64,000 nt of DNA from Clostridia bacterium (GTDB lineage: Bacteria > Bacillota > Clostridia > RGIG6154). The position numbers and the translations under genes are program-made. The stretch lies in NCBI GenBank assembly GCA_045593265.1, contig JAZNWH010000129.1, positions 4,646 to 68,645 of the forward strand, in the 5' to 3' direction. Position 1 is the stretch's first letter; each line of letters begins with the position of its first letter. Under the pieces are notes generated by a model. It was not told where the DNA came from. It ran no database searches and saw only the letters and a program-made list of their open reading frames with translations. Shown here in pieces: positions 48,362 through 57,835 of this stretch.

Positions 48362-48391
48362 AAAAAAACGGTTGGTCATCCAACCGTTTTT
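48362..48391. terminator. Bidirectional terminator
   Basis: AAAAAACGGTTGG-tcat-CCAACCGTTTTTT. Confidence 0.75.
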
Positions 48392-49539
48392 TGATTTATT
48401 TCCGTTACTATATCTACTACCTTTGAAAGAATGTTTTCCATATCGTTAAGCCTATTTGCAATTTGTAAGAGTATTTGAGAGGTGTTATCATTTTCTATTG
48501 CTCTTTTGATACTTTTAATCTCCTCTGAAACACTTTTTGTTTCATTTTTGGTTACTCCTGCAAACTTTTCTATATTGTTATCATCTTCTGTATTATGTAA
48601 TTTTCTGCGATAATTGAGATAATCATTTTCTTTGCCAAACAACCTCTTATATTCGTTTCCTTTTTTAAATGCATAGGTGTAAATGTAGTTACTATCATTA
48701 AAATCAAAGTCCTTTTGACCTGATATTTTTACGAGCATATATTTTTCAAAACCATCACAATGAAGATAATTTACATTATCCCACCTCTCATCCTTAAATT
48801 TACTTGCCAGTAATTTACCATAATACTCAAACACACAAACGACACTTTCTTCGTTATTTAGAAGACAACACTGAACCGACTTTGACAAAGACGATGCAAC
48901 CACAGCTGAATCAACTATAACTTTATATGTATTTGAATTTTTGACACAACAGGCAATATGTTTATTATTTCCTTTATCCAGACACATACTTATATGGTAG
49001 ACCTTTTCTTCAAGTGTCATAATTCTTTCTCTGCTTTCCCATCTTTTGGACTTCCACACATATACTGCTGTTTGCAGTGTTTCTCCATTGGTATATGCTA
49101 TATGTATATTTCGTTTTTCATCTTTAACAATACAAAAATTTATTTCGTTTTCACTTTCGCATATAACATCGGGATTTGTTCTGCTACCAAATATTTGATG
49201 AACAAGCAGGTATTTTTCATTATGTTTTAAAACATAAAATCCACAAAGCCAATTGTTGTTGCTTATCAATGTTATATTGTGATTATAATTTTCATTTTTA
49301 GTTGATTCTAAAACACATTCTCTGTCCCATATTCCATTATATGCTGACACATAAAGATTTCCTTTGGTTTGTGTCATTACATACAACACACCATTTTCGC
49401 TTACAGCAACATCAAAATCATCCATATCACATTCACAGACTGTTTCACATATTTGCCTATCAGGTCTATAACACTTAAGAGCCCCATCGTCTGAAAAAAA
49501 TTCCCATATTCCATTGGTATCATAAACAAGTTTTTTCAT
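48376..49539 (-). CDS. Hypothetical protein (beta-rich repeats, C-terminal coiled coil), possibly sporulation-specific
   Basis: 387-aa ORF with GGAGG RBS; sigma-E-like promoter upstream. Confidence 0.7.
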   Translation of the reverse strand: MKKLVYDTNGIWEFFSDDGALKCYRPDRQICETVCECDMDDFDVAVSENGVLYVMTQTKGNLYVSAYNGIWDRECVLESTKNENYNHNITLISNNNWLCGFYVLKHNEKYLLVHQIFGSRTNPDVICESENEINFCIVKDEKRNIHIAYTNGETLQTAVYVWKSKRWESRERIMTLEEKVYHISMCLDKGNNKHIACCVKNSNTYKVIVDSAVVASSLSKSVQCCLLNNEESVVCVFEYYGKLLASKFKDERWDNVNYLHCDGFEKYMLVKISGQKDFDFNDSNYIYTYAFKKGNEYKRLFGKENDYLNYRRKLHNTEDDNNIEKFAGVTKNETKSVSEEIKSIKRAIENDNTSQILLQIANRLNDMENILSKVVDIVTEINQKTVG

Positions 49540-49588: not shown

Positions 49589-49593
49589 TTTGT

Positions 49594-49620
49594 AACATTT
49601 TATAAAACTCAACATAGTAT
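49594..49620 (+). promoter_or_regulatory. Sigma-K-like promoter of the split gene
   Basis: AC (49595-49596)-16 nt-CATAGTAT. Confidence 0.45.
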
Positions 49621-49656
49621 GTATTGGGTGAAGCAATATTTCAAGGAGGTAAAAAT

Positions 49657-49871
49657 ATGAACAGAGAGGTTACTCCCGGTCCTATCACTAATGGAGGAAA
49701 CTGTATTAAGGAAGCAGTGTGTATACACACAGATAAAGTTTATGATTCCTGCAGAGATAAAGAGTGTCTTCAGGATTTAAGAGTTTATTTTACAGTTCCT
49801 GATCAGGCTATTATCGATGCCTCATCAAGTGTAAAAATCACAAACGCAGAAGTTTTATGGGTATACACAGA
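49657..49871 (+). CDS. 5' segment of the interrupted Cys-rich putative spore coat/exosporium gene
   Basis: AAGGAGGT RBS; MNREV...EAVCIHTDKVYDSCRDKEC...WVYT; joins in frame to 57171-57783. Confidence 0.85.
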
Positions 49872-49881
49872 GGTGTATCTT
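49863..49881 (+). other. attL recombination site
   Basis: ATACACAGA core (49863-49871) followed by the GGTGTATCTTT arm. Confidence 0.85.
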
Positions 49882-49899
49882 TTTACCAACTCTTTATCA

Positions 49900-49928
49900 T
49901 TGACAAAAACATTTTAGAGTGCTATAAT
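49900..49928 (+). promoter_or_regulatory. Perfect sigma-A promoter with extended -10 for the capD-cpsD-cpsB operon
   Basis: TTGACA-17 nt (ending TGc)-TATAAT. Confidence 0.8.
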
Positions 49929-49968
49929 TAAGGGTGAATATATAAAAAAATTAATATGCGGTGGTATT

Positions 49969-51846
49969 ATGAAAAATTTAAAACTGAACAAATATACTTT
50001 GCTATTTTCGTTCACAGATATTTTAACAATTGCTTGTGCTTTTTTTTGTGGTTTCTTACTATTAAATCCTTTGGGCGCTTTTTCGGAAAATGAACTATAC
50101 ACTCTATGTCAATATATACTTATAACAGCATTTGTCAACATGTTGTCATTGTTATTTTCGGGAACTTACAATAAAGTATGGACTAAAGCTACCATTGTTG
50201 ATTATTTCCAGACCGTTTTCTTAGTTTCTTTCAATTTTATATTTTCATATATAATCGCAATTATTGCAAATTCACATCATGTTTCGATCAAGCTTTACAT
50301 AGTTTCGGCTTTCCTTACCTGTATGCTTGTTTTTGTTTCCCGAACATCTGTAAGATTTTTATCATATTACCAGCATTATTTAATTTTAAAATCAAAACAC
50401 AATAAGCAAAAGAAAGTGCTGATAGTAGGAGCAGGCTCTGCAGCAAAAATGCTCCTTGAAGATATACTTCTTAACAATCCTCTTAGTTATAACATAGCCG
50501 GCTTTGTTGATGATAACACAGAAAAAGTGGGCAGTTATCTTATGGGATACCGTGTATTGGGTACAAGAGACGACATTCCTAAAATATGTGAAAAAGACAA
50601 TATTGATACAATAATAATTGCAATTCCTTCCGCTTCCAAAAAAGAGATATCAAGAATTTTAGAATACTGTTCAAAAACAGATTGCAATGTTAAAATGGTT
50701 CCTGGTATCGGGGAGCTTATAAGTGTCAATGATGTGGGAATTTTCAAGCAGACAAGAAACATTCAGTTTGACGACCTTCTTTCCCGCGAACCTGTATCTC
50801 TTAACAACAAAGAAATATCAAACATACTTAAAGATAACGTCGTTATGGTTACCGGCGGAGGCGGATCTATCGGAAGTGAGCTTTGCAAACAGATTGCAAA
50901 ATTTGCTCCCTCAAAACTTATAATTGTTGACATTTATGAAAACACAACTTATGACACACAAATTGAACTTAAAAAATCTTTTCCGAATCTTGAACTTGAA
51001 GTTATCATTGCATCCATAAAAGATGAGGAAAGAATGGAGAATATTTTTGATAAATACAGACCCGATATTGTTTACCATGCAGCAGCACACAAGCATGTAC
51101 CTCTGATGGAAGACAGTCCCGGCGAAGCTGTTGAAAATAATATTTTCGGTACATACATTGTTGCAAAATGTGCTGATAAATTTGAAGTTAAAAAATTCAT
51201 TATGGTTTCTACAGACAAAGCTGTTAACCCTACAAATGTTATGGGTGCAACAAAACGTTTCTGCGAGATGATTGTACAGTCAATGAATACTGTAAGTAAG
51301 ACAACCTATTCCTGTGTGCGTTTTGGCAATGTCCTCGGAAGCCACGGTTCAGTTATACCACTATTCAAAAAACAAATCGAACAAGGTGGCCCCGTTACTG
51401 TTACACATAAAGATATTACAAGATTTTTTATGACAATTCCTGAAGCAGCTCAGCTAATACTCCAGGCATCATCTTACGCTAAAAGTGGTGAAATTTTTGT
51501 TCTTGATATGGGTGAACCGGTTAAAATATATGACCTGGCAGTTAAATATATTAAGCTTTCCGGCTACAAACCCGGCATTGATATTGATATTGATATCGTG
51601 GGACTTCGTCCTGGAGAAAAGCTTTATGAAGAACTGTTAATGGATGAAGAAGGACTTACAAATACTTCTAACGAAAGTATCTTTATAGGAAAAACTACAG
51701 CAATTGACTTGAACGTTATCAAAACTCATCTTAAACATCTTTCAACAGTAGTTAACTCCAAAAACAATGATGAGATTATAAGTGCCCTTCATGATGCTGT
51801 TCCTACTTTTGTATCTGCGGATGACTACAATTGCATAAAATCATAA
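49969..51846 (+). CDS. Polysaccharide biosynthesis nucleotide-sugar dehydratase (CapD/PglF/EpsC family)
   Basis: 4 TM; VTGGGGSIGSEL, HAAAHKHVP, STDKAVNP, RFGNVLGS, GLRPGEKLYEEL. Confidence 0.93.
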   Translation: MKNLKLNKYTLLFSFTDILTIACAFFCGFLLLNPLGAFSENELYTLCQYILITAFVNMLSLLFSGTYNKVWTKATIVDYFQTVFLVSFNFIFSYIIAIIANSHHVSIKLYIVSAFLTCMLVFVSRTSVRFLSYYQHYLILKSKHNKQKKVLIVGAGSAAKMLLEDILLNNPLSYNIAGFVDDNTEKVGSYLMGYRVLGTRDDIPKICEKDNIDTIIIAIPSASKKEISRILEYCSKTDCNVKMVPGIGELISVNDVGIFKQTRNIQFDDLLSREPVSLNNKEISNILKDNVVMVTGGGGSIGSELCKQIAKFAPSKLIIVDIYENTTYDTQIELKKSFPNLELEVIIASIKDEERMENIFDKYRPDIVYHAAAHKHVPLMEDSPGEAVENNIFGTYIVAKCADKFEVKKFIMVSTDKAVNPTNVMGATKRFCEMIVQSMNTVSKTTYSCVRFGNVLGSHGSVIPLFKKQIEQGGPVTVTHKDITRFFMTIPEAAQLILQASSYAKSGEIFVLDMGEPVKIYDLAVKYIKLSGYKPGIDIDIDIVGLRPGEKLYEELLMDEEGLTNTSNESIFIGKTTAIDLNVIKTHLKHLSTVVNSKNNDEIISALHDAVPTFVSADDYNCIKS

Positions 51847-51896
51847 TCATTATATAGAAATTAAAATTCAATATATATTTTGAAAGGATTACTTAA

Positions 51897-52772
51897 ATGA
51901 AATTTTTACAAAAAAACAAAAACAAAGATAAAGCAAATGACAACAAGAATTACAAATATAATATTATTACAGACAATTCTCCTTTTTACATCAAGGAAGC
52001 CTATAAATCTTTGAGAACAAACATAATGTTCACTCTTGAAAACGAAACTTCAAAAGTAATTCTTATTACAAGCTCTATGGCCAAAGAAGGTAAATCAACT
52101 GTTTCAATCAACACTGCTATTACATTTGCCCAAACAGGCAGCAAAGTAATTCTTATTGATTGCGATTTAAGAAAACCTAAAATACACAGATATATGGATT
52201 TGCAAAATCAAAATGGTCTTTCTAATCTTCTAGGTGGATTTGCCAGCCTTGACGATGTAATCAGCCATACAAAATATGGATTTGACTGTATTACCTGTGG
52301 GCACATCCCACCAAACCCATCGGAATTACTTTCCTCAAATAAAATGGCAGACTTATTAGTTAAGCTTCGTGAGAAATATGATTACATCTTACTGGATACT
52401 CCTCCTGTGAATGTGGTTACCGATACCTGTGCAATCGGCAAGTTAGTAGATGGCGCGATTTTCGTTGTTAAGCACAACACCACAATGAATACAGACGTGG
52501 ATGCAGCTATTGCTGCACTTGAATTTTCAGAAACAAAAATACTTGGTTTTGTTTTCAACTCCTCTCCTACTGCAGGCGTTTTAGGATATCAAAAACGTGT
52601 TGGATACAGAAAATACTATTCATACAGAAAATATGGATATTCAAAAGGAAAATACGGATACTACAACAGCTACAAAAATTATGGTGGATACGGATATGGT
52701 TATTCTCCATCATCTTCAAAAACAGCGAATAACGAATCATCAAAAGATACAAATTCAGAAAATAAACAGTAA
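51897..52772 (+). CDS. BY-kinase, CpsD/CapB family tyrosine kinase
   Basis: EAYKSLRTN, EGKST, IDCDLRKP, LDTPP; C-terminal Tyr cluster. Confidence 0.93.
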   Translation: MKFLQKNKNKDKANDNKNYKYNIITDNSPFYIKEAYKSLRTNIMFTLENETSKVILITSSMAKEGKSTVSINTAITFAQTGSKVILIDCDLRKPKIHRYMDLQNQNGLSNLLGGFASLDDVISHTKYGFDCITCGHIPPNPSELLSSNKMADLLVKLREKYDYILLDTPPVNVVTDTCAIGKLVDGAIFVVKHNTTMNTDVDAAIAALEFSETKILGFVFNSSPTAGVLGYQKRVGYRKYYSYRKYGYSKGKYGYYNSYKNYGGYGYGYSPSSSKTANNESSKDTNSENKQ

Positions 52773-52844
52773 CCGAAACAACCACAACACTGAAGATGCC
52801 TTTAGTATTTGTGGCTTCGGCTGAGTTATCAGAAAGGTTAATTT

Positions 52845-53573
52845 ATGAATAATAATTTATGCATATGTGATTTTCATTCACATATACTCCCCTCTATTGA
52901 TGACGGTGCGAAAGATACATCTATGGCTGTAACTCTTCTGAAAGAAGAAATAGAACAAGGAGTAAAGCATCTTTGCCTTACTCCTCATTTTTATTCTAAT
53001 GAAAACGTTGAGTCATTCATAAAAAAACGCAACCTCTCGTTTCTTAAACTAAAAGAACAAATATATAAAGAAAACATCAAAAACGTACCTAATATGCATT
53101 TAGGGGCTGAAGTTGCTTTAAACTATACTACACCGGAAATACCTGATTTAAACAAGCTTTGTTTAGGCGATACGGAATTACTGCTTTTGGAAATGCCTGA
53201 CACATTTTGGGGAGATTGGATACCTGAGGTTTTGTACAGAATTTCAGCAGAAAAATCATTAACACCAATAATCGCCCATGCAGACAGATATATTGATAAT
53301 AAGAATTCCATAAAAATACTACAAAAACTGATAGATATGGATATTATTATGCAATTTAATTCGTACAATCTTACACATCCCAAGGTTGTCGGACTTATAA
53401 AGAAAATTCTTGCAAGAAATGTAAACACCCCATTGATTGGCAGTGATGCCCATAACACCAAATATCGTTCTGTTACAATCAAAAAAGTTAGTTCCCCACT
53501 GCATAAAATTCTATATGGTAAAAATTTCATAAATAATATAAATACATTTACAGAAAGTATTTTAATAAAATAA
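52845..53573 (+). CDS. PHP-type tyrosine phosphatase, CpsB/CapC family
   Basis: DFHSHILPSIDDGA, TPHF, IAHADRY, GSDAHN. Confidence 0.92.
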   Translation: MNNNLCICDFHSHILPSIDDGAKDTSMAVTLLKEEIEQGVKHLCLTPHFYSNENVESFIKKRNLSFLKLKEQIYKENIKNVPNMHLGAEVALNYTTPEIPDLNKLCLGDTELLLLEMPDTFWGDWIPEVLYRISAEKSLTPIIAHADRYIDNKNSIKILQKLIDMDIIMQFNSYNLTHPKVVGLIKKILARNVNTPLIGSDAHNTKYRSVTIKKVSSPLHKILYGKNFINNINTFTESILIK

Positions 53574-53600
53574 AACCTCTCATACGAGAGGTTTTATTTT
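53567..53600. terminator. Bidirectional terminator between the two convergent cargo units
   Basis: AAAATAAAACCTCTC-atac-GAGAGGTTTTATTTT. Confidence 0.8.
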
Positions 53601-54318
53601 ATGCTGTCGTTTTCTTTGGATTTTGTTCCTCATTTTCAAAAATCGGAAGCTCCGCAAGTACAGGATAATTAAATTTTTCTCTTAATGATACCGTATCTTT
53701 AATTCTGTCATCGAAAAGTTCTATCATAATCACAAGTGCAGCACCTATAACAAATCCTAACATAGACAAAACAGTTGCATTTCTTTTTGTATTTGGTGCT
53801 GATGTAGAACGTGGTATTTCAGGATGGTCTATAATCTTTACATTACCACCTGTAACAACTCTCGCAACCTCACTCTGGGCATTATTAAGTACAGTTTCAA
53901 CGATAATTGCCGCATGCTCAGGATTAGGATGTGTACAGCTTACAGAAATAATTTCTGTATCACCTTTTGCTGATACCGAAACAAAGGATGCCAACTGTCT
54001 GAAATTATAGTCAAGTCCTGTTTCTGCGCTAACACTCTTGAAAAATGTATTACTTGAAAGTATCTGTACATAATTCTTTACAAGCTCACGGGCATATATT
54101 ATATCTGAATACTCACCTTTCTTGGTCATATAATTACTGTTATCAGCAGTTATATATACGGACCCTCTTGCAGTATACACAGGTGTTACCATTAATTTTG
54201 TATACGCAACCGAACCTATAAAGAAAACTATTGTAAAAATAGCAACTACCCACCAACGATTTAATACCATTACTACTAAATCCCATACACTGATTTGTTC
54301 TCTGTTCAAAACTCTCAC
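53599..54318 (-). CDS. CpsC/CapA (Wzz-like) polysaccharide co-polymerase / BY-kinase activator
   Basis: Two TM; TPVYTA, DDRIKD..., PVLAELP. Confidence 0.88.
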   Translation of the reverse strand: MRVLNREQISVWDLVVMVLNRWWVVAIFTIVFFIGSVAYTKLMVTPVYTARGSVYITADNSNYMTKKGEYSDIIYARELVKNYVQILSSNTFFKSVSAETGLDYNFRQLASFVSVSAKGDTEIISVSCTHPNPEHAAIIVETVLNNAQSEVARVVTGGNVKIIDHPEIPRSTSAPNTKRNATVLSMLGFVIGAALVIMIELFDDRIKDTVSLREKFNYPVLAELPIFENEEQNPKKTTA

Positions 54319-54350
54319 CTCATTGTAAATGTTATCTAAAACTATAATTA

Positions 54351-55214
54351 TTAATCAAGAGACAATATATCTTTAACTGCGTATACCGCTTCTTTACTGA
54401 TAGTACATTTCATCAAATAAACTTTCGCAACATCAATCAGCTTTTTTAAATCATCAATAAAAATACTAACCATATGTTCCAATACAGGTTTATTAATTTC
54501 ATTATATAGCCTGAAAAATGCTGTAACACCATCAATCTGAGATATTTCCACACTGCTATGCTGTTCAATACAAATTATTCCTGCAAGTCTTGACTTTATA
54601 TTGTTATTTATAAAATGCTTGCCTGACCACGGTGTTCCGTAAACATATACTTCTCCATCTGTTATTCTCATAACAGGATTATCATCATTGATATAAACAA
54701 CATCCTCTAAGTGTTGTTTCCACAAAGATGTCTGTGTAGACTTTCCCGTTCCTGATGGTGCAGAAAACAAGATAGCATTTCCTTTATATGAAATAGCGGA
54801 GGCGTGAATAACATACGCATGATGCATCATCAACATATAATAAAAGGCCTGTCCAACTAATCCAAATAACTTTAAATCAATTGACGGCCCACCTATCAAA
54901 GATGTATCCTTAGCACAGATATCTGCACGATTAAAATCCTTATTCCATGTTATTTTCGCAAGGCACAAGTCGTAGCTTTGAGAATAAGTATATGCATATA
55001 CAGAACCATCAGCATTATCAATGTGCCATGAAAAACGCCCTGCACCTACAACATCTTCGTCAAAACGTTCAAGTTCAATTTCATCCTGCACTTTATAAGT
55101 AATAACCATATCTGCACCCGAAAACGGCATTTCATACTCTTTTAACTTTTCAGACAGAAAAGCATTAGAGTTGCCTGTTATTTCAAGCTTATATCCTGCA
55201 ATTAAATACTTCAC
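54351..55214 (-). CDS. HPr-kinase-like P-loop protein (RiPP/lasso-peptide kinase-like)
   Basis: IHASAI, SAPSGTGKST, INDD, YGTPWSGK. Confidence 0.75.
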   Translation of the reverse strand: MKYLIAGYKLEITGNSNAFLSEKLKEYEMPFSGADMVITYKVQDEIELERFDEDVVGAGRFSWHIDNADGSVYAYTYSQSYDLCLAKITWNKDFNRADICAKDTSLIGGPSIDLKLFGLVGQAFYYMLMMHHAYVIHASAISYKGNAILFSAPSGTGKSTQTSLWKQHLEDVVYINDDNPVMRITDGEVYVYGTPWSGKHFINNNIKSRLAGIICIEQHSSVEISQIDGVTAFFRLYNEINKPVLEHMVSIFIDDLKKLIDVAKVYLMKCTISKEAVYAVKDILSLD

Positions 55215-55216
55215 TT

Positions 55217-55399
55217 TTATGTATTTGTGTTGCTTGTTCCATAAGCTTCCAACAAACCAATTTCATTATCTGTAACAAGACCAGAATCGCTATATCCATC
55301 AGATTGCGAATCAGAAACAGAGTCCGGAACCAATGCAGTAACGGTTTCTTTAACCTGTAATTCAACTATATTCAAAATTGGCTTTTCATATTTAATCAT
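55217..55399 (-). CDS. Putative RiPP precursor peptide (60 aa)
   Basis: GGAGG RBS; leader KYEKPIL (YxxPxL); Ser/Asp-rich C-terminal half; lies between PqqD and the kinase. Confidence 0.65.
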   Translation of the reverse strand: MIKYEKPILNIVELQVKETVTALVPDSVSDSQSDGYSDSGLVTDNEIGLLEAYGTSNTNT

Positions 55400-55499
55400 A
55401 TACTAAACCTCCAATACCAACTTCATTCATTAATAACTAACATCCATACTTTGCATTTTCTTCTGACAAAGCACATAAAAACACTAATTTTACTCCTAT

Positions 55500-55528
55500 A
55501 TTATATACCAAATTCTCTTAAAAGTCAA
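55500..55528 (-). promoter_or_regulatory. Sigma-A promoter of the peptide-kinase unit
   Basis: TTGACT-17 nt-TATAAT. Confidence 0.7.
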
Positions 55529-55547
55529 TAGAATAAAATGTAAATCA

Positions 55548-55826
55548 TCAATTTTCCAATAAGTTTTGACTTGCAAGCTTAAAAACAAATTCATTGACAT
55601 CATTATCGGCACATTCAACATCAATTTCAAATGCTTCTGCAAATTTGCTTACCAATTCGCTATATTCTGTTCCTTCATCAAGTTGTTGCCATATCCATGC
55701 ACCTGTTTCATTTGTTGTAAGCATCTTTTTGAAGTCTACTATATTTTTCCCAGTTGGCACCACTATATAATCTCCTGCTATGTTCTTTAAAACAAAGCCG
55801 CTTTTGTGTTTAAGAAATTTTCTCAT
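55548..55826 (-). CDS. PqqD-family protein (stand-alone RiPP recognition element)
   Basis: FVLKNIAGDYIVVP, NETGAWIWQQL, DVNEFV..L...NLL. Confidence 0.88.
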   Translation of the reverse strand: MRKFLKHKSGFVLKNIAGDYIVVPTGKNIVDFKKMLTTNETGAWIWQQLDEGTEYSELVSKFAEAFEIDVECADNDVNEFVFKLASQNLLEN

Positions 55827-55861
55827 ATAATTATCTTCTTCCTTTAATTAGCTTTACGTTA

Positions 55862-55890
55862 ATTATATCATTTTTTTTTGAATTAATCAA
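55862..55890 (-). promoter_or_regulatory. Sigma-A promoter of the PqqD gene, with an A9 tract in the spacer
   Basis: TTGATT-17 nt (ending TGa)-TATAAT. Confidence 0.55.
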
Positions 55891-57019
55891 CATCTTTCCA
55901 AAATACCGTAATGTCTTTACTGCTTAAAACAATTCTTTTCACAAGATTTTGAATTACAAAAAAATCCAGGTATTTATTATCTTTTTCTAAGCGTAATTTC
56001 TTTAGTATAATTTGAATAATTTTATTTTCTGATACATTATTACGACAATCTACACATATAATCTTTTGGTTTTTTCTTATACATTTTCCACCACATTCAC
56101 ATTTCAGCAAACCACTTAAAGGATTCATCAACCCGTTTTTATCACTTCTATGACCATTTTTTATTTTTTCCTGAGTAAATGCATATATTTGTGGGTCGAT
56201 TATTCTCTTATGAGTATTTTTTACACATATCCATTCATTTTCAGGAACAGATATTCTTTTTTTGCTTTTATAGCTTAATTTATTTTTCCTGTTTTGAACC
56301 AGGTTTCCGCAGTAAACAGGATTTGTCAAAATATCCTTAACTGTTCCCCCTGTCCAGTTATAGCCTTGTTTTTTCTCTCTGTAATTCATAGGAGAAACAA
56401 TTTTTTCTTTATTTAATATCTGGGCAATTTTAGATGTTCCGAAACCAAAATTATATAACCAGAATATAATCCTTACTGTCTGTTCTGTTTTGGCATCCTT
56501 AATCAGTTGATTTTTATTTTCAGGGTTTTTCATATATCCATAAGGTGCAAAAGCAAACAAACACTCCCCTTTTCTCATCTTATCCTTGAACACCGCTCTT
56601 ATATTTTCTGACAAATCCTCAAGGTACCATTCGTTTATAAGTGAATTAATCTGTCTTGTTTTTTTGTTGTTTTTATCATATGAATCAGTATTGTCAACTA
56701 CAGATATAAACCGTATACCCAGCTCAAGAAATTTGTTGTTAATAAATTTATCTATTATACTGATATCTCTTGAAAATCTTGACATCGTTTTACATATTAC
56801 TGTATCAAAACATTTATTTTCTGCATCTTTAAGCATTCTGTTAAACTCAGGCCGTTCTGCATTTATTCCCGAATAATCCTCATCTACATATATATTGTAT
56901 ATATCGTAGCAGTTATCTATACAGTAATTTATCAACATACTTTTTTGATTTAAAATGCTTTCACTTTCATCGCCGGTTTCATCTTCTTTTGATATTCTGC
57001 AATATAATGCCGCTTTTAT
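55883..57019 (-). CDS. Large-serine-recombinase family protein (378 aa from an ATA start; SpoIVCA/TndX-like)
   Basis: Frame extends upstream of the called ORF to IKAALYCRISKED (catalytic Ser); also DEDYSG...RP, SRFSRD, APYGY, ILTNPVYCG and a Zn ribbon CECG/CVDC. Confidence 0.9.
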   Translation of the reverse strand: MKAALYCRISKEDETGDESESILNQKSMLINYCIDNCYDIYNIYVDEDYSGINAERPEFNRMLKDAENKCFDTVICKTMSRFSRDISIIDKFINNKFLELGIRFISVVDNTDSYDKNNKKTRQINSLINEWYLEDLSENIRAVFKDKMRKGECLFAFAPYGYMKNPENKNQLIKDAKTEQTVRIIFWLYNFGFGTSKIAQILNKEKIVSPMNYREKKQGYNWTGGTVKDILTNPVYCGNLVQNRKNKLSYKSKKRISVPENEWICVKNTHKRIIDPQIYAFTQEKIKNGHRSDKNGLMNPLSGLLKCECGGKCIRKNQKIICVDCRNNVSENKIIQIILKKLRLEKDNKYLDFFVIQNLVKRIVLSSKDITVFWKDVD

Positions 57020-57110
57020 CTTTATTCACTCCTTCATGATAATATTTTTCGATAAATTTTATTAGTTCTTCAATCTTTGCTTTGTTAAAATTTTTATGAA
57101 TTACTTTCAT
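56979..57110 (-). CDS. 43-aa ORF overlapping the recombinase start (candidate directionality factor or translational-coupling leader)
   Basis: GGTGG RBS; MKVIHKNFNKAKIEELIKFIEKYYHEGVNKDKSGIILQNIKRR*. Confidence 0.45.
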   Translation of the reverse strand: MKVIHKNFNKAKIEELIKFIEKYYHEGVNKDKSGIILQNIKRR

Positions 57111-57157
57111 TCAACCACCAATTAATTATATTGCTGATGCAAAGCGAAAAGAACAAC

Positions 57158-57174
57158 AAAGATACACAGATGTG
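57158..57174 (+). other. attR recombination site
   Basis: AAAGATACAC arm + AGA (core ATACACAGA at 57162-57170) followed by TGTG. Confidence 0.85.
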
Positions 57175-57783
57175 GAACCCGTTCAGTTCAATCAGGGCTA
57201 CTATACTGTTGATATAAGATTCTATTTCAGAGTTACTCTTGATGTATACGCTGAACTTGGCAGACCTAAGAGAGTCGAAGGCATTGCTATTTATGACAAA
57301 AAAATTGCACTTTTCGGTTCCGAAGGCAAGTCAAAGATATTCCAGTCATCTTTCAATGAAGGTGCACCTGATAAACAGATAAGAGAAAAAAGCAATGTTC
57401 CTAAAGCTGTAGTTGAAGTAGTAGATCCTATTGCACTCAGCGCAAGAATTGCAGATAAATGTTCTGATAATTTATGTTGCGGCAATTGCGAAGTATCTTC
57501 AATACCTGAATGTATTTTAAATTGCTTCGAAGGTGCAATTTGTCCTGCAGATACAGAAAAAAGAGTTTATGTTACTTTAGGATTATTTACAATAACAAAA
57601 CTCGAAAGAAATGTACAGCTTCTCATTCCTGTATATGATTTCTGTATTCCTACTGACGAATGTGTTTCATCTTCTCCTGCTAATCCTTGCGACTTGTTCG
57701 ATCAGATTCAGTTCCCGGTTGATGAATTCTTCCCACCTCAGAAGCACGATTTCTTCGGTAACAACAATTGTGATTGTCAGTAA
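57171..57783 (+). CDS. 3' segment of the interrupted Cys-rich putative spore coat/exosporium gene
   Basis: No convincing RBS; VEPVQFNQGYY...PCDLFDQIQFPVDEFFPPQK...CDCQ*; in frame with 49657-49871 after excision. Confidence 0.85.
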
Positions 57784-57786
57784 AAG

Positions 57787-57835
57787 TATAAAAGAACATC
57801 TCCAAAAGATTTCCTTTTGGAGATGTTCTTTTATA
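57787..57835. terminator. Bidirectional terminator
   Basis: TATAAAAGAACATCTCCAAAAG...CTTTTGGAGATGTTCTTTTATA. Confidence 0.8.

Follow-up and report, generated by a model that had tools for sequence, protein, structure and literature searches.

The closest described counterparts of the locus analysed here are skin, gin and the 134-kb SPbeta, all of them found within genes of spore formation. In the skin elements, which interrupt sigK (B. subtilis SpoIVCA; C. difficile CD1231 plus CD1234), the two parts of a split sporulation gene are brought back together by a serine recombinase whose own gene lies at the element's edge (PMC5025042). SPbeta occupies spsM, a spore-surface polysaccharide gene, from which it is cut out in the mother cell (SprA, SprB; PMC4191935, PMC5499854), and gin is found in the late mother-cell gene gerE of Bacillus cereus ATCC 10987 (GirC, GirX; PMC5595907). 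Here we analyse a window of 64,000 nucleotides (nt) from an uncultured gut bacterium of the Clostridia (assembly GCA_045593265.1, contig JAZNWH010000129.1, positions 4,646 to 68,645 of the forward strand; all coordinates given without a locus handle are those of the window), in which an element of 7,299 bp (49872-57170) splits a gene assigned to the CsxA family. As in skin, a serine recombinase is encoded at the element's edge and, as in gin, the element is not a phage. We consider it probable that this is a gene-intervening element of the skin/gin kind, which excises itself at a GA dinucleotide and thereby restores the CsxA-family gene.

The 5' part of the split gene (49657-49871, forward strand) starts with ATG at 49657 after an AAGGAGG sequence and ends with GA, and the 3' part (57169-57783, forward strand) starts with the same dinucleotide. 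Joined at GA in silico, the halves form a frame of 275 codons that contains 16 cysteines and no stop, and in which GA provides the first two bases of a conserved Asp codon. Across the rejoined junction the protein sequence is W-V-Y-T-D-V-E-P, in agreement with intact orthologues from related genera; those orthologues that were read are continuous across the site as WVYTDVEP, WVQTDVEP or WVTSDVEP. Homologues of the 3' half are present in 26 out of 41 related genomes, and those from other genera belong to open frames of ~276-357 aa, bar two shorter rows (in one the frame hits the start of a contig, and the other is a weaker second match within one genome). The restored frame and the uninterrupted orthologues provide an independent confirmation of the element boundaries, which an earlier sequence-only reading of this DNA had supported by the geometry of the attachment (att) sites.

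A query with an intact orthologue produced 3,656 homologues; wherever a source name is shown for the 120 listed, it is "hypothetical". Some of the listed homologues, at 58-71% identity, carry PF27077 (PF27077.1) in their precomputed annotation, a family labelled CsxA in the Atlas, and it is via this annotation that we assign the split gene to the CsxA family. CsxA is described as building the basal lattice of the exosporium (PMC7333573). A putative sigma-K-type promoter precedes the split gene (49593-49621, forward strand), comprising TAACA (49593-49597) and ACATAGTATG (49612-49621), with a 16-nt gap between the AC of TAACA and CATA. The CATAnnnT element is found upstream of all 11 orthologues printed, and a CAC/AAC-type -35 element about 16 nt before it is visible in 10 of these 11; the elements fit the B. 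subtilis sigma-K consensus, given as KCACM / GCATANNNTA (PMC3416734). SpoIVA is encoded in the genome of the window (G000) and in 37 of the 41 relatives, and a CsxA-type gene occurs in none of the four relatives without SpoIVA, albeit three of these four genomes are incomplete and the genomes are related, the samples thus not being independent. Judged by its family, its sigma-K-type promoter and the occurrence of SpoIVA, the target is predicted to be a sporulation-specific mother-cell gene. The possibility that the two halves operate as separate proteins was rejected, as the GTG at 57172 has no Shine-Dalgarno sequence in front of it; the conserved att dyads and the conserved recombinase speak against it as well.

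The sequence-only reading had placed a central GA at 49870-49871 and at 57169-57170, and the window sequence indeed reads G at 49870 and 57169 and A at 49871 and 57170. The left site, attL (49856-49885, forward strand), consists of the chromosomal arm B (49860-49869), the central GA and the element arm P' (GTGTATCTTT, 49873-49882), and the right site, attR (57155-57184, forward strand), of the element arm P (AAAGATACAC, 57158-57167), the central GA and the chromosomal arm B' (57171-57180). In the assembly attL is unique with up to 3 mismatches allowed, and attR is unique as well. The element arms AAAGATACAC and GTGTATCTTT are exact reverse complements equidistant from GA, and when the element ends are joined, the resulting circle junction carries a perfect pair of 10-bp inverted arms, exactly as that reading had it. 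The chromosome-side arms form a weaker dyad, the imperfect inverted repeat described earlier, with CACA/TGTG innermost.

The symmetry of the rebuilt sites was assessed by a scan of 34 axes per site with 14 base pairs scored, in the genome of the window and in the other species of the same genus (G001). For the circle junction of G000 the top axis falls between G and A (11/14 pairs; runner-up 8), and the rebuilt chromosomal site has the same top axis (8/14; runner-up 7). In G001 the top axes of the circle junction (9/14) and of the chromosomal site (7/14) fall on the same GA, making it the top symmetry axis in 4/4 rebuilt sites from two genomes; the common centre claimed for the G000 sites is thereby recovered in a second species. 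Among 400,000 random chimeric junctions taken from the window, 51 had at least 11/14 pairs on a fixed axis (1.3e-4) and 9 had a run of at least 10 (2e-5); with 8 registers allowed, these counts were 363 and 53, respectively. The circle-junction dyad is therefore far beyond chance (p ~1e-4). The chromosomal dyad by itself is weak and not beyond chance, because a score of 8/14 was reached by 7,552 of the random junctions (1.9%). All four half-sites have a common inner ACAC/CCAC block. At position -7, which in the half-sites P, P' and B is equally distant from GA, all three carry A in G000 and G in G001, a covariation expected if a dimer reads symmetric positions around GA. Since GA is non-palindromic and has the same, direct orientation at both ends, the predicted outcome of the exchange is deletion rather than inversion.

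The comparison with G001, which is the sole further species representing this genus in the collection, provides evidence of both the age of the insertion and the constraint on the gene. In G001 the same gene is split at the same place by an element of 7,310 bp with the same gene order. The two elements share 68-78% nucleotide identity, and their ends differ in sequence. Because the synonymous divergence (dS) between them reaches saturation or values of 0.7 and above, like that of the flanking genes, the insertion is older than the split of the two species. The ratio of nonsynonymous to synonymous divergence (dN/dS) is 0.026 for the 5' half, 0.053 for the 3' half and 0.058 for the recombinase, and ranges from 0.13 to 0.22 for the five cargo genes with estimable dS (the saturated dS makes it not measurable for capD and the kinase gene). 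Both halves being under strong purifying selection though the insertion predates the species split, these sequences indicate that the gene must be rejoined; by the same comparison, a gene broken for good would not have stayed so constrained in its two halves.

The gene next to attR encodes a serine recombinase (55883-57019, reverse strand) of ~378 aa, if translated from an ATA at 57019-57017, with predicted catalytic, recombinase and short zinc-ribbon domains. The only Pfam matches are to the resolvase domain (the catalytic domain, PF00239, E = 6e-17) and the recombinase domain (PF07508, E = 3.5e-20), and the NCBIfam scan gave only sub-threshold matches to CcrB and XisF. The top sequence matches in PDB are the catalytic domains of TnpX and TP901-1, TnpX being the best (2mhc, E = 5e-15), while a fold search placed large serine integrases first (SPbeta, phiC31, Bxb1 and Listeria innocua, E down to 8e-17), with SprA structures on top. 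Residues R58, D67, S82, R83, R86 and D87 are invariant in alignment A1, and C309, C311, C315, C324 and C327 of the zinc-ribbon region are invariant in the short clade of this enzyme; the region has no PF13408 match and is modelled as short strands with a predicted local distance difference test (pLDDT) score of 80-89.

Aligned with relatives of 521 aa, the short clade is devoid of 14 zinc-ribbon residues and of ~115 residues that P0127 and P0129 carry in the stretch from the ribbon to the last beta-hairpin; the latter gap holds for all short-clade sequences that reach this region. The AlphaFold model of the recombinase has a mean pLDDT of 66.8, rising to 80-89 over the C-terminal 110 residues, where it displays short strands and two helices of ~11 residues but no long helical hairpin. 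By alignment and model alike, the enzyme is thus predicted to have no coiled-coil motif. DUF4368 (PF14287), a marker of the TndX-like clade (PMC10083194), matches neither the recombinase nor P0121-P0125. Outside the short clade, the most similar proteins mostly have ~521 aa, with 47-52% identity, and many of them carry a zinc-ribbon family together with DUF4368. These relationships suggest that the enzyme derives from the TnpX/TndX-like clade and has lost its coiled coil. For the Listeria innocua integrase, the coiled coil is reported to be needed for efficient intermolecular attP x attB recombination, and the enzyme deprived of it to carry out intramolecular attP x attB and attL x attR reactions alike (PMC5499577). 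No candidate for a directionality factor was recognised in the element and, by analogy with that integrase, such a factor may be unnecessary for an enzyme without the coiled coil. As for the "ready attP/attB pair" envisaged in the sequence-only reading, both sites could be rebuilt and are symmetric, and its value as a tool is doubtful because the recombinase is without a coiled-coil motif.

In the list of open reading frames (ORFs) the recombinase begins at an internal Met (Met30), a version without the first 24 positions of the resolvase profile, and the catalytic Y-C-R-I-S motif lies in frame upstream of it. The frame of G001 is open from its ATG. The corresponding place in G000 reads ATG-AAG-GAG-TGA (57026-57037, reverse strand), in frame and overlapped by a GAAGGAG Shine-Dalgarno sequence. 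In both genomes GAAGGAG is followed 9 nt later by ATA-AAA-GCG-GCA, the ATA of which aligns with Met1 of the nearest full-length (521-aa) relatives, and the 29 codons before Met30 differ between G000 and G001 by seven synonymous and two non-synonymous changes. The conserved start of the recombinase is thus probably this non-canonical ATA. The option of reading the TGA as a residue was rejected, the genome being that of a SpoIVA-bearing member of Clostridia in which ORFs close normally under table 11. A 43-aa upstream ORF (56979-57110, reverse strand), which starts 60 bp inside attR, extends over the start of the recombinase in a different frame. It shows 65% aa identity in G001, with a dN/dS of 0.42 and a 3-base difference in length, and has no family match in Pfam or NCBIfam; possible roles are that of a small factor or of a leader through which translation is coupled.

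From what is observed at the locus (the sequences with their symmetry, a reading frame that is restored, the degree of conservation and the domains encoded) we infer an excision with the following course. The element's own serine recombinase would bind the four half-sites, cut both strands at GA in attL and attR and swap the ends, restoring the in-frame gene of 275 codons and setting free a circle with the perfect 10-bp dyad at its junction. The reaction would be an intramolecular attL x attR deletion which, by analogy with the integrase devoid of its coiled coil, would require no directionality factor, and reintegration would probably be poor. Such a design suits, as far as the analogy holds, a resident element whose only task is its own deletion. 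Excision would be limited to the sporulating mother cell, as the nature of the target gene suggests, its timing being set by when and how much recombinase is made, and a conserved non-AUG start (probably ATA, served by a strong Shine-Dalgarno sequence) would keep the level of the enzyme low. The product of the rejoined gene would be a cysteine-rich lattice protein of the spore envelope, made late in the mother cell.

A number of observations weigh against this interpretation. The halves of the gene and the intact orthologue have no match in the local Pfam or NCBIfam. The att pairs and DNA of this element family come from two genomes only, G000 and G001; a scan for further orthologous elements in the contigs of genomes with the recombinase (33 loci, best ~43% identity) and a scan of metagenome contigs with the short-clade alignment (80 loci kept, all at 42-49% identity) gave no orthologue. 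No attB or attP junction is present in the assembly with up to 3 mismatches allowed. Of 23 public runs listed, all as contigs, four were compared with the window and gave one weak bridging contig (49795 to 57208), the shorter side of which has 22 letters at a depth of 2.5, and in run X5 two contigs with matches starting at 57168. These contigs are too weak for a call and may stem from relatives, the bridging one perhaps from a relative whose gene is uninterrupted. A by-eye look upstream of the recombinase in both genomes produced no convincing match to a sigma-E or sigma-K promoter. In the recombinase frame of G000, neither ATG nor GTG nor TTG occurs ahead of the catalytic serine, and a TGA (57028-57026) stands where G001 has CGA. 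The enzyme may therefore be produced inefficiently, or recent damage in G000 may have put it out of action. Finally, the logic of sequence identity leaves five candidate dinucleotides other than GA.

The last point deserves to be considered together with the claim that crossover occurs at the central GA, of which the symmetry and the comparison with G001 uphold the essence and sequence identity gives a less exclusive picture. Identity in G000 does not single out GA because its attL and attR share nine bases, ATACACAGA. The dinucleotide offsets permitted by attL/attR identity are -7 to 0, +3 and +4 in G000 and -5 to -3 and 0 to +4 in G001, which in register leaves six dinucleotides common to the two genomes (offsets -5, -4, -3, 0, +3 and +4). 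A G001 mismatch at -1 and a G000 mismatch at +2 rule out the dinucleotides adjoining GA, and out of the six only GA, at offset 0, is on the symmetry axis. Excision might proceed as described with strand exchange at one of the remaining five, AC, CA or AC (-5 to -3) or GT or TG (+3, +4), each of which matches between attL and attR in G000 as well as in G001 and would rebuild the same protein. We regard this as very unlikely, since they sit 3-5 bp off the top axis of all four rebuilt sites, whereas serine recombinases are described as cutting at the central dinucleotide of the dyad (PMC5595907), and the central GA is the one reported as always used by TndX (PMC4430133); for TnpX the target is given as 2 bp (PMC3158075). 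The symmetry axis, when combined with the comparison between G000 and G001, singles out GA, and we infer that the strands are cleaved there.

Self-excision at GA has further to be weighed against two explanations of a different kind. In one of them the element of G000 is a frozen relic, the recombinase no longer being made and the gene staying split. The TGA, at codon 4 of the G001-type frame, the lack of a canonical start and the absence of an excision junction from the assembly, with none firm in the contigs of public runs, are in agreement with this possibility, as is the fact that in 4 out of 5 close database clusters gene callers begin the protein at Met30, without the catalytic serine. 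It is at odds with the excess of synonymous changes before Met30, with the ATA that follows GAAGGAG in both genomes at the position of Met1 of the full-length relatives, and with the intact state of both gene halves and both att sites; we therefore consider a relic unlikely. A second explanation, an ordinary integrative mobile element which is active in growing cells and whose excision is not tied to sporulation, would agree with the origin of the recombinase from a clade of multi-targeting transposon recombinases (PMC10083194), with the consensus vegetative promoter of the cargo and with the lack of a recognised sporulation promoter for the recombinase. On the other hand, the same element with the same gene order occupies the same site in two species and has diverged like the flanking genes, there are no transfer genes and no second copy or second site in the genome, and an enzyme without the coiled coil should integrate poorly. 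Moreover, all three listed clusters with at least 77% identity to the 3' half are split forms, and those from other clades, at 68% identity or below, are all either longer or split by other elements. In view of this evidence an ordinary mobile element appears decidedly improbable, and self-excision at GA is the reading we retain.

The cargo is preceded by a predicted sigma-70 promoter (49900-49928, forward strand; TTGACA, 17 nt, TATAAT, with TG before the second hexamer), which matches the hexamers at 12/12 positions, lies 30 bp inside attL, reads into the cargo and has the same hexamers, spacing and place in G001. Downstream on the forward strand are genes for a CapD-type polysaccharide biosynthesis protein (49969-51846; PF02719, E = 2e-121), a P-loop ATPase (51897-52772; PF10609, PF13614) which is probably CpsD-like, and a CpsB/CapC-type phosphatase (52845-53573; PF19567, E = 4e-33). 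The ATPase has a long tail rich in Tyr, Gly and Ser (52650-52772), as expected for a capsule tyrosine kinase. The reverse strand encodes a Wzz chain-length determinant protein (53599-54318; PF02706, PF13807), a kinase-like protein weakly related to HprK (54351-55214; TIGR04352, E = 1e-4, far below the cut-off, and no Pfam match), a 60-aa ORF without a family match between the kinase-like and PqqD genes (55217-55399; Asp/Ser-rich, 47% aa identity in G001, dN/dS 0.16) and a PqqD-family protein (55548-55826; PF05402, E = 6.5e-16). The last three form a cassette (54351-55826) that is kept in G001 under purifying selection and may be a small modified-peptide system. The capsule-regulator genes of the element are accompanied by no glycosyltransferase genes, and the Pfam scan revealed no phage or transfer genes among the cargo. 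Outside the element, a long hairpin scored as terminator-like (57788-57834, reverse strand) separates the end of the split gene from a convergent gene for an HtrA-like protease. On the other side, a gene for a 387-aa protein with no family match (48376-49539, reverse strand) is divergent from the split gene. Similar divergent neighbours adjoin the orthologues in L005 and L010, and a conserved ORF divergent from csxA is mentioned in PMC7333573.

Splitting of CsxA-family genes at this codon, by different elements, recurs beyond this genus. Among the best 120 clusters inspected in the search with the 3' half, 13 are ORFs of 201-236 aa that start at the junction, with unrelated residues before T-D-V-E-P; three of them belong to the clade of the window (77-98% identity) and ten to lineages that are 51-61% identical. 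In one genome (G332, L160:9462-10200) the 3' half has no 5' half within 7.6 kb and is preceded by another element arm at the same ACA-GA. At L162:2487-3203 the gene is split at the same T/D codon boundary, and its relative at L163:4240-5088 is intact, the site reading TTTACA-GA. The arms before GA in G332 and L162 (…GCCTTTACA and …GCTTTACA) are unlike that of the window. In a genome of another family (G052; L158:10308-19998, with L161) the gene is split ~80 codons downstream of the studied site by an element of ~9.2 kb, which encodes a 283-aa serine recombinase and a 1,983-aa ORF, has GGCACA in common at its ends and carries the stop codon of the recombinase inside the 3' gene piece; six further search rows have the same partial-match pattern (query from residue 72-81). 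A tentative proposal, conceivable though rather doubtful in its entirety, is that the loss of the coiled coil has given rise to a factor-independent, effectively excision-only developmental recombinase, its level kept low by an ATA start, and that the same CsxA codon is a recurrent site for several unrelated elements across gut Clostridia. If true, many uncultured species would control the surface lattice of their spores by DNA rearrangement.

Compared with the described systems, the locus extends the skin/gin class by an unreported target gene and an unusual recombinase without a coiled coil; no paper combining "CsxA" and "recombinase" was found in the literature searched. A spore-surface lattice gene would thereby join the sporulation genes rebuilt by DNA excision. 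The skin elements are prophage-like, unlike the element described here, and that of C. difficile is controlled by a directionality factor which depends on sigma-E and is considered to target the coiled-coil motifs, a motif absent here. SPbeta is likewise unlike this element in being an active phage that needs SprB. The similarity to gin extends to the att sites, which in gin have a shared core of 9 bp whose 3' end holds the predicted central dinucleotide, itself in the middle of an inverted repeat, the same geometry as here (PMC5595907). On the other hand, gin comprises 28.6 kb and three recombinase genes, with GirX being needed, versus 7.3 kb, one recombinase and no recognised directionality factor in this element, which also differs in its capsule-type cargo and in its target gene. 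With respect to the enzyme, the clostridial transposon recombinases TnpX (Tn4451), the best match among solved structures, and TndX (Tn5397) are the nearest in kind; the likeness to the TndX-like clade lies in the nearest full-length relatives of our recombinase (47-51% identity), which carry DUF4368. TnpX and TndX are long, use many sites and both integrate and excise, whereas the present enzyme is predicted to have ~378 aa, neither DUF4368 nor a coiled coil, and one conserved site. It would be a natural counterpart of the laboratory coiled-coil deletion used to study directionality. With its defined attL/attR pair it would also provide a compact enzyme for deletions that may work without a factor, and it allows a test of coiled-coil loss as a route from a mobile integrase to a one-way host switch.

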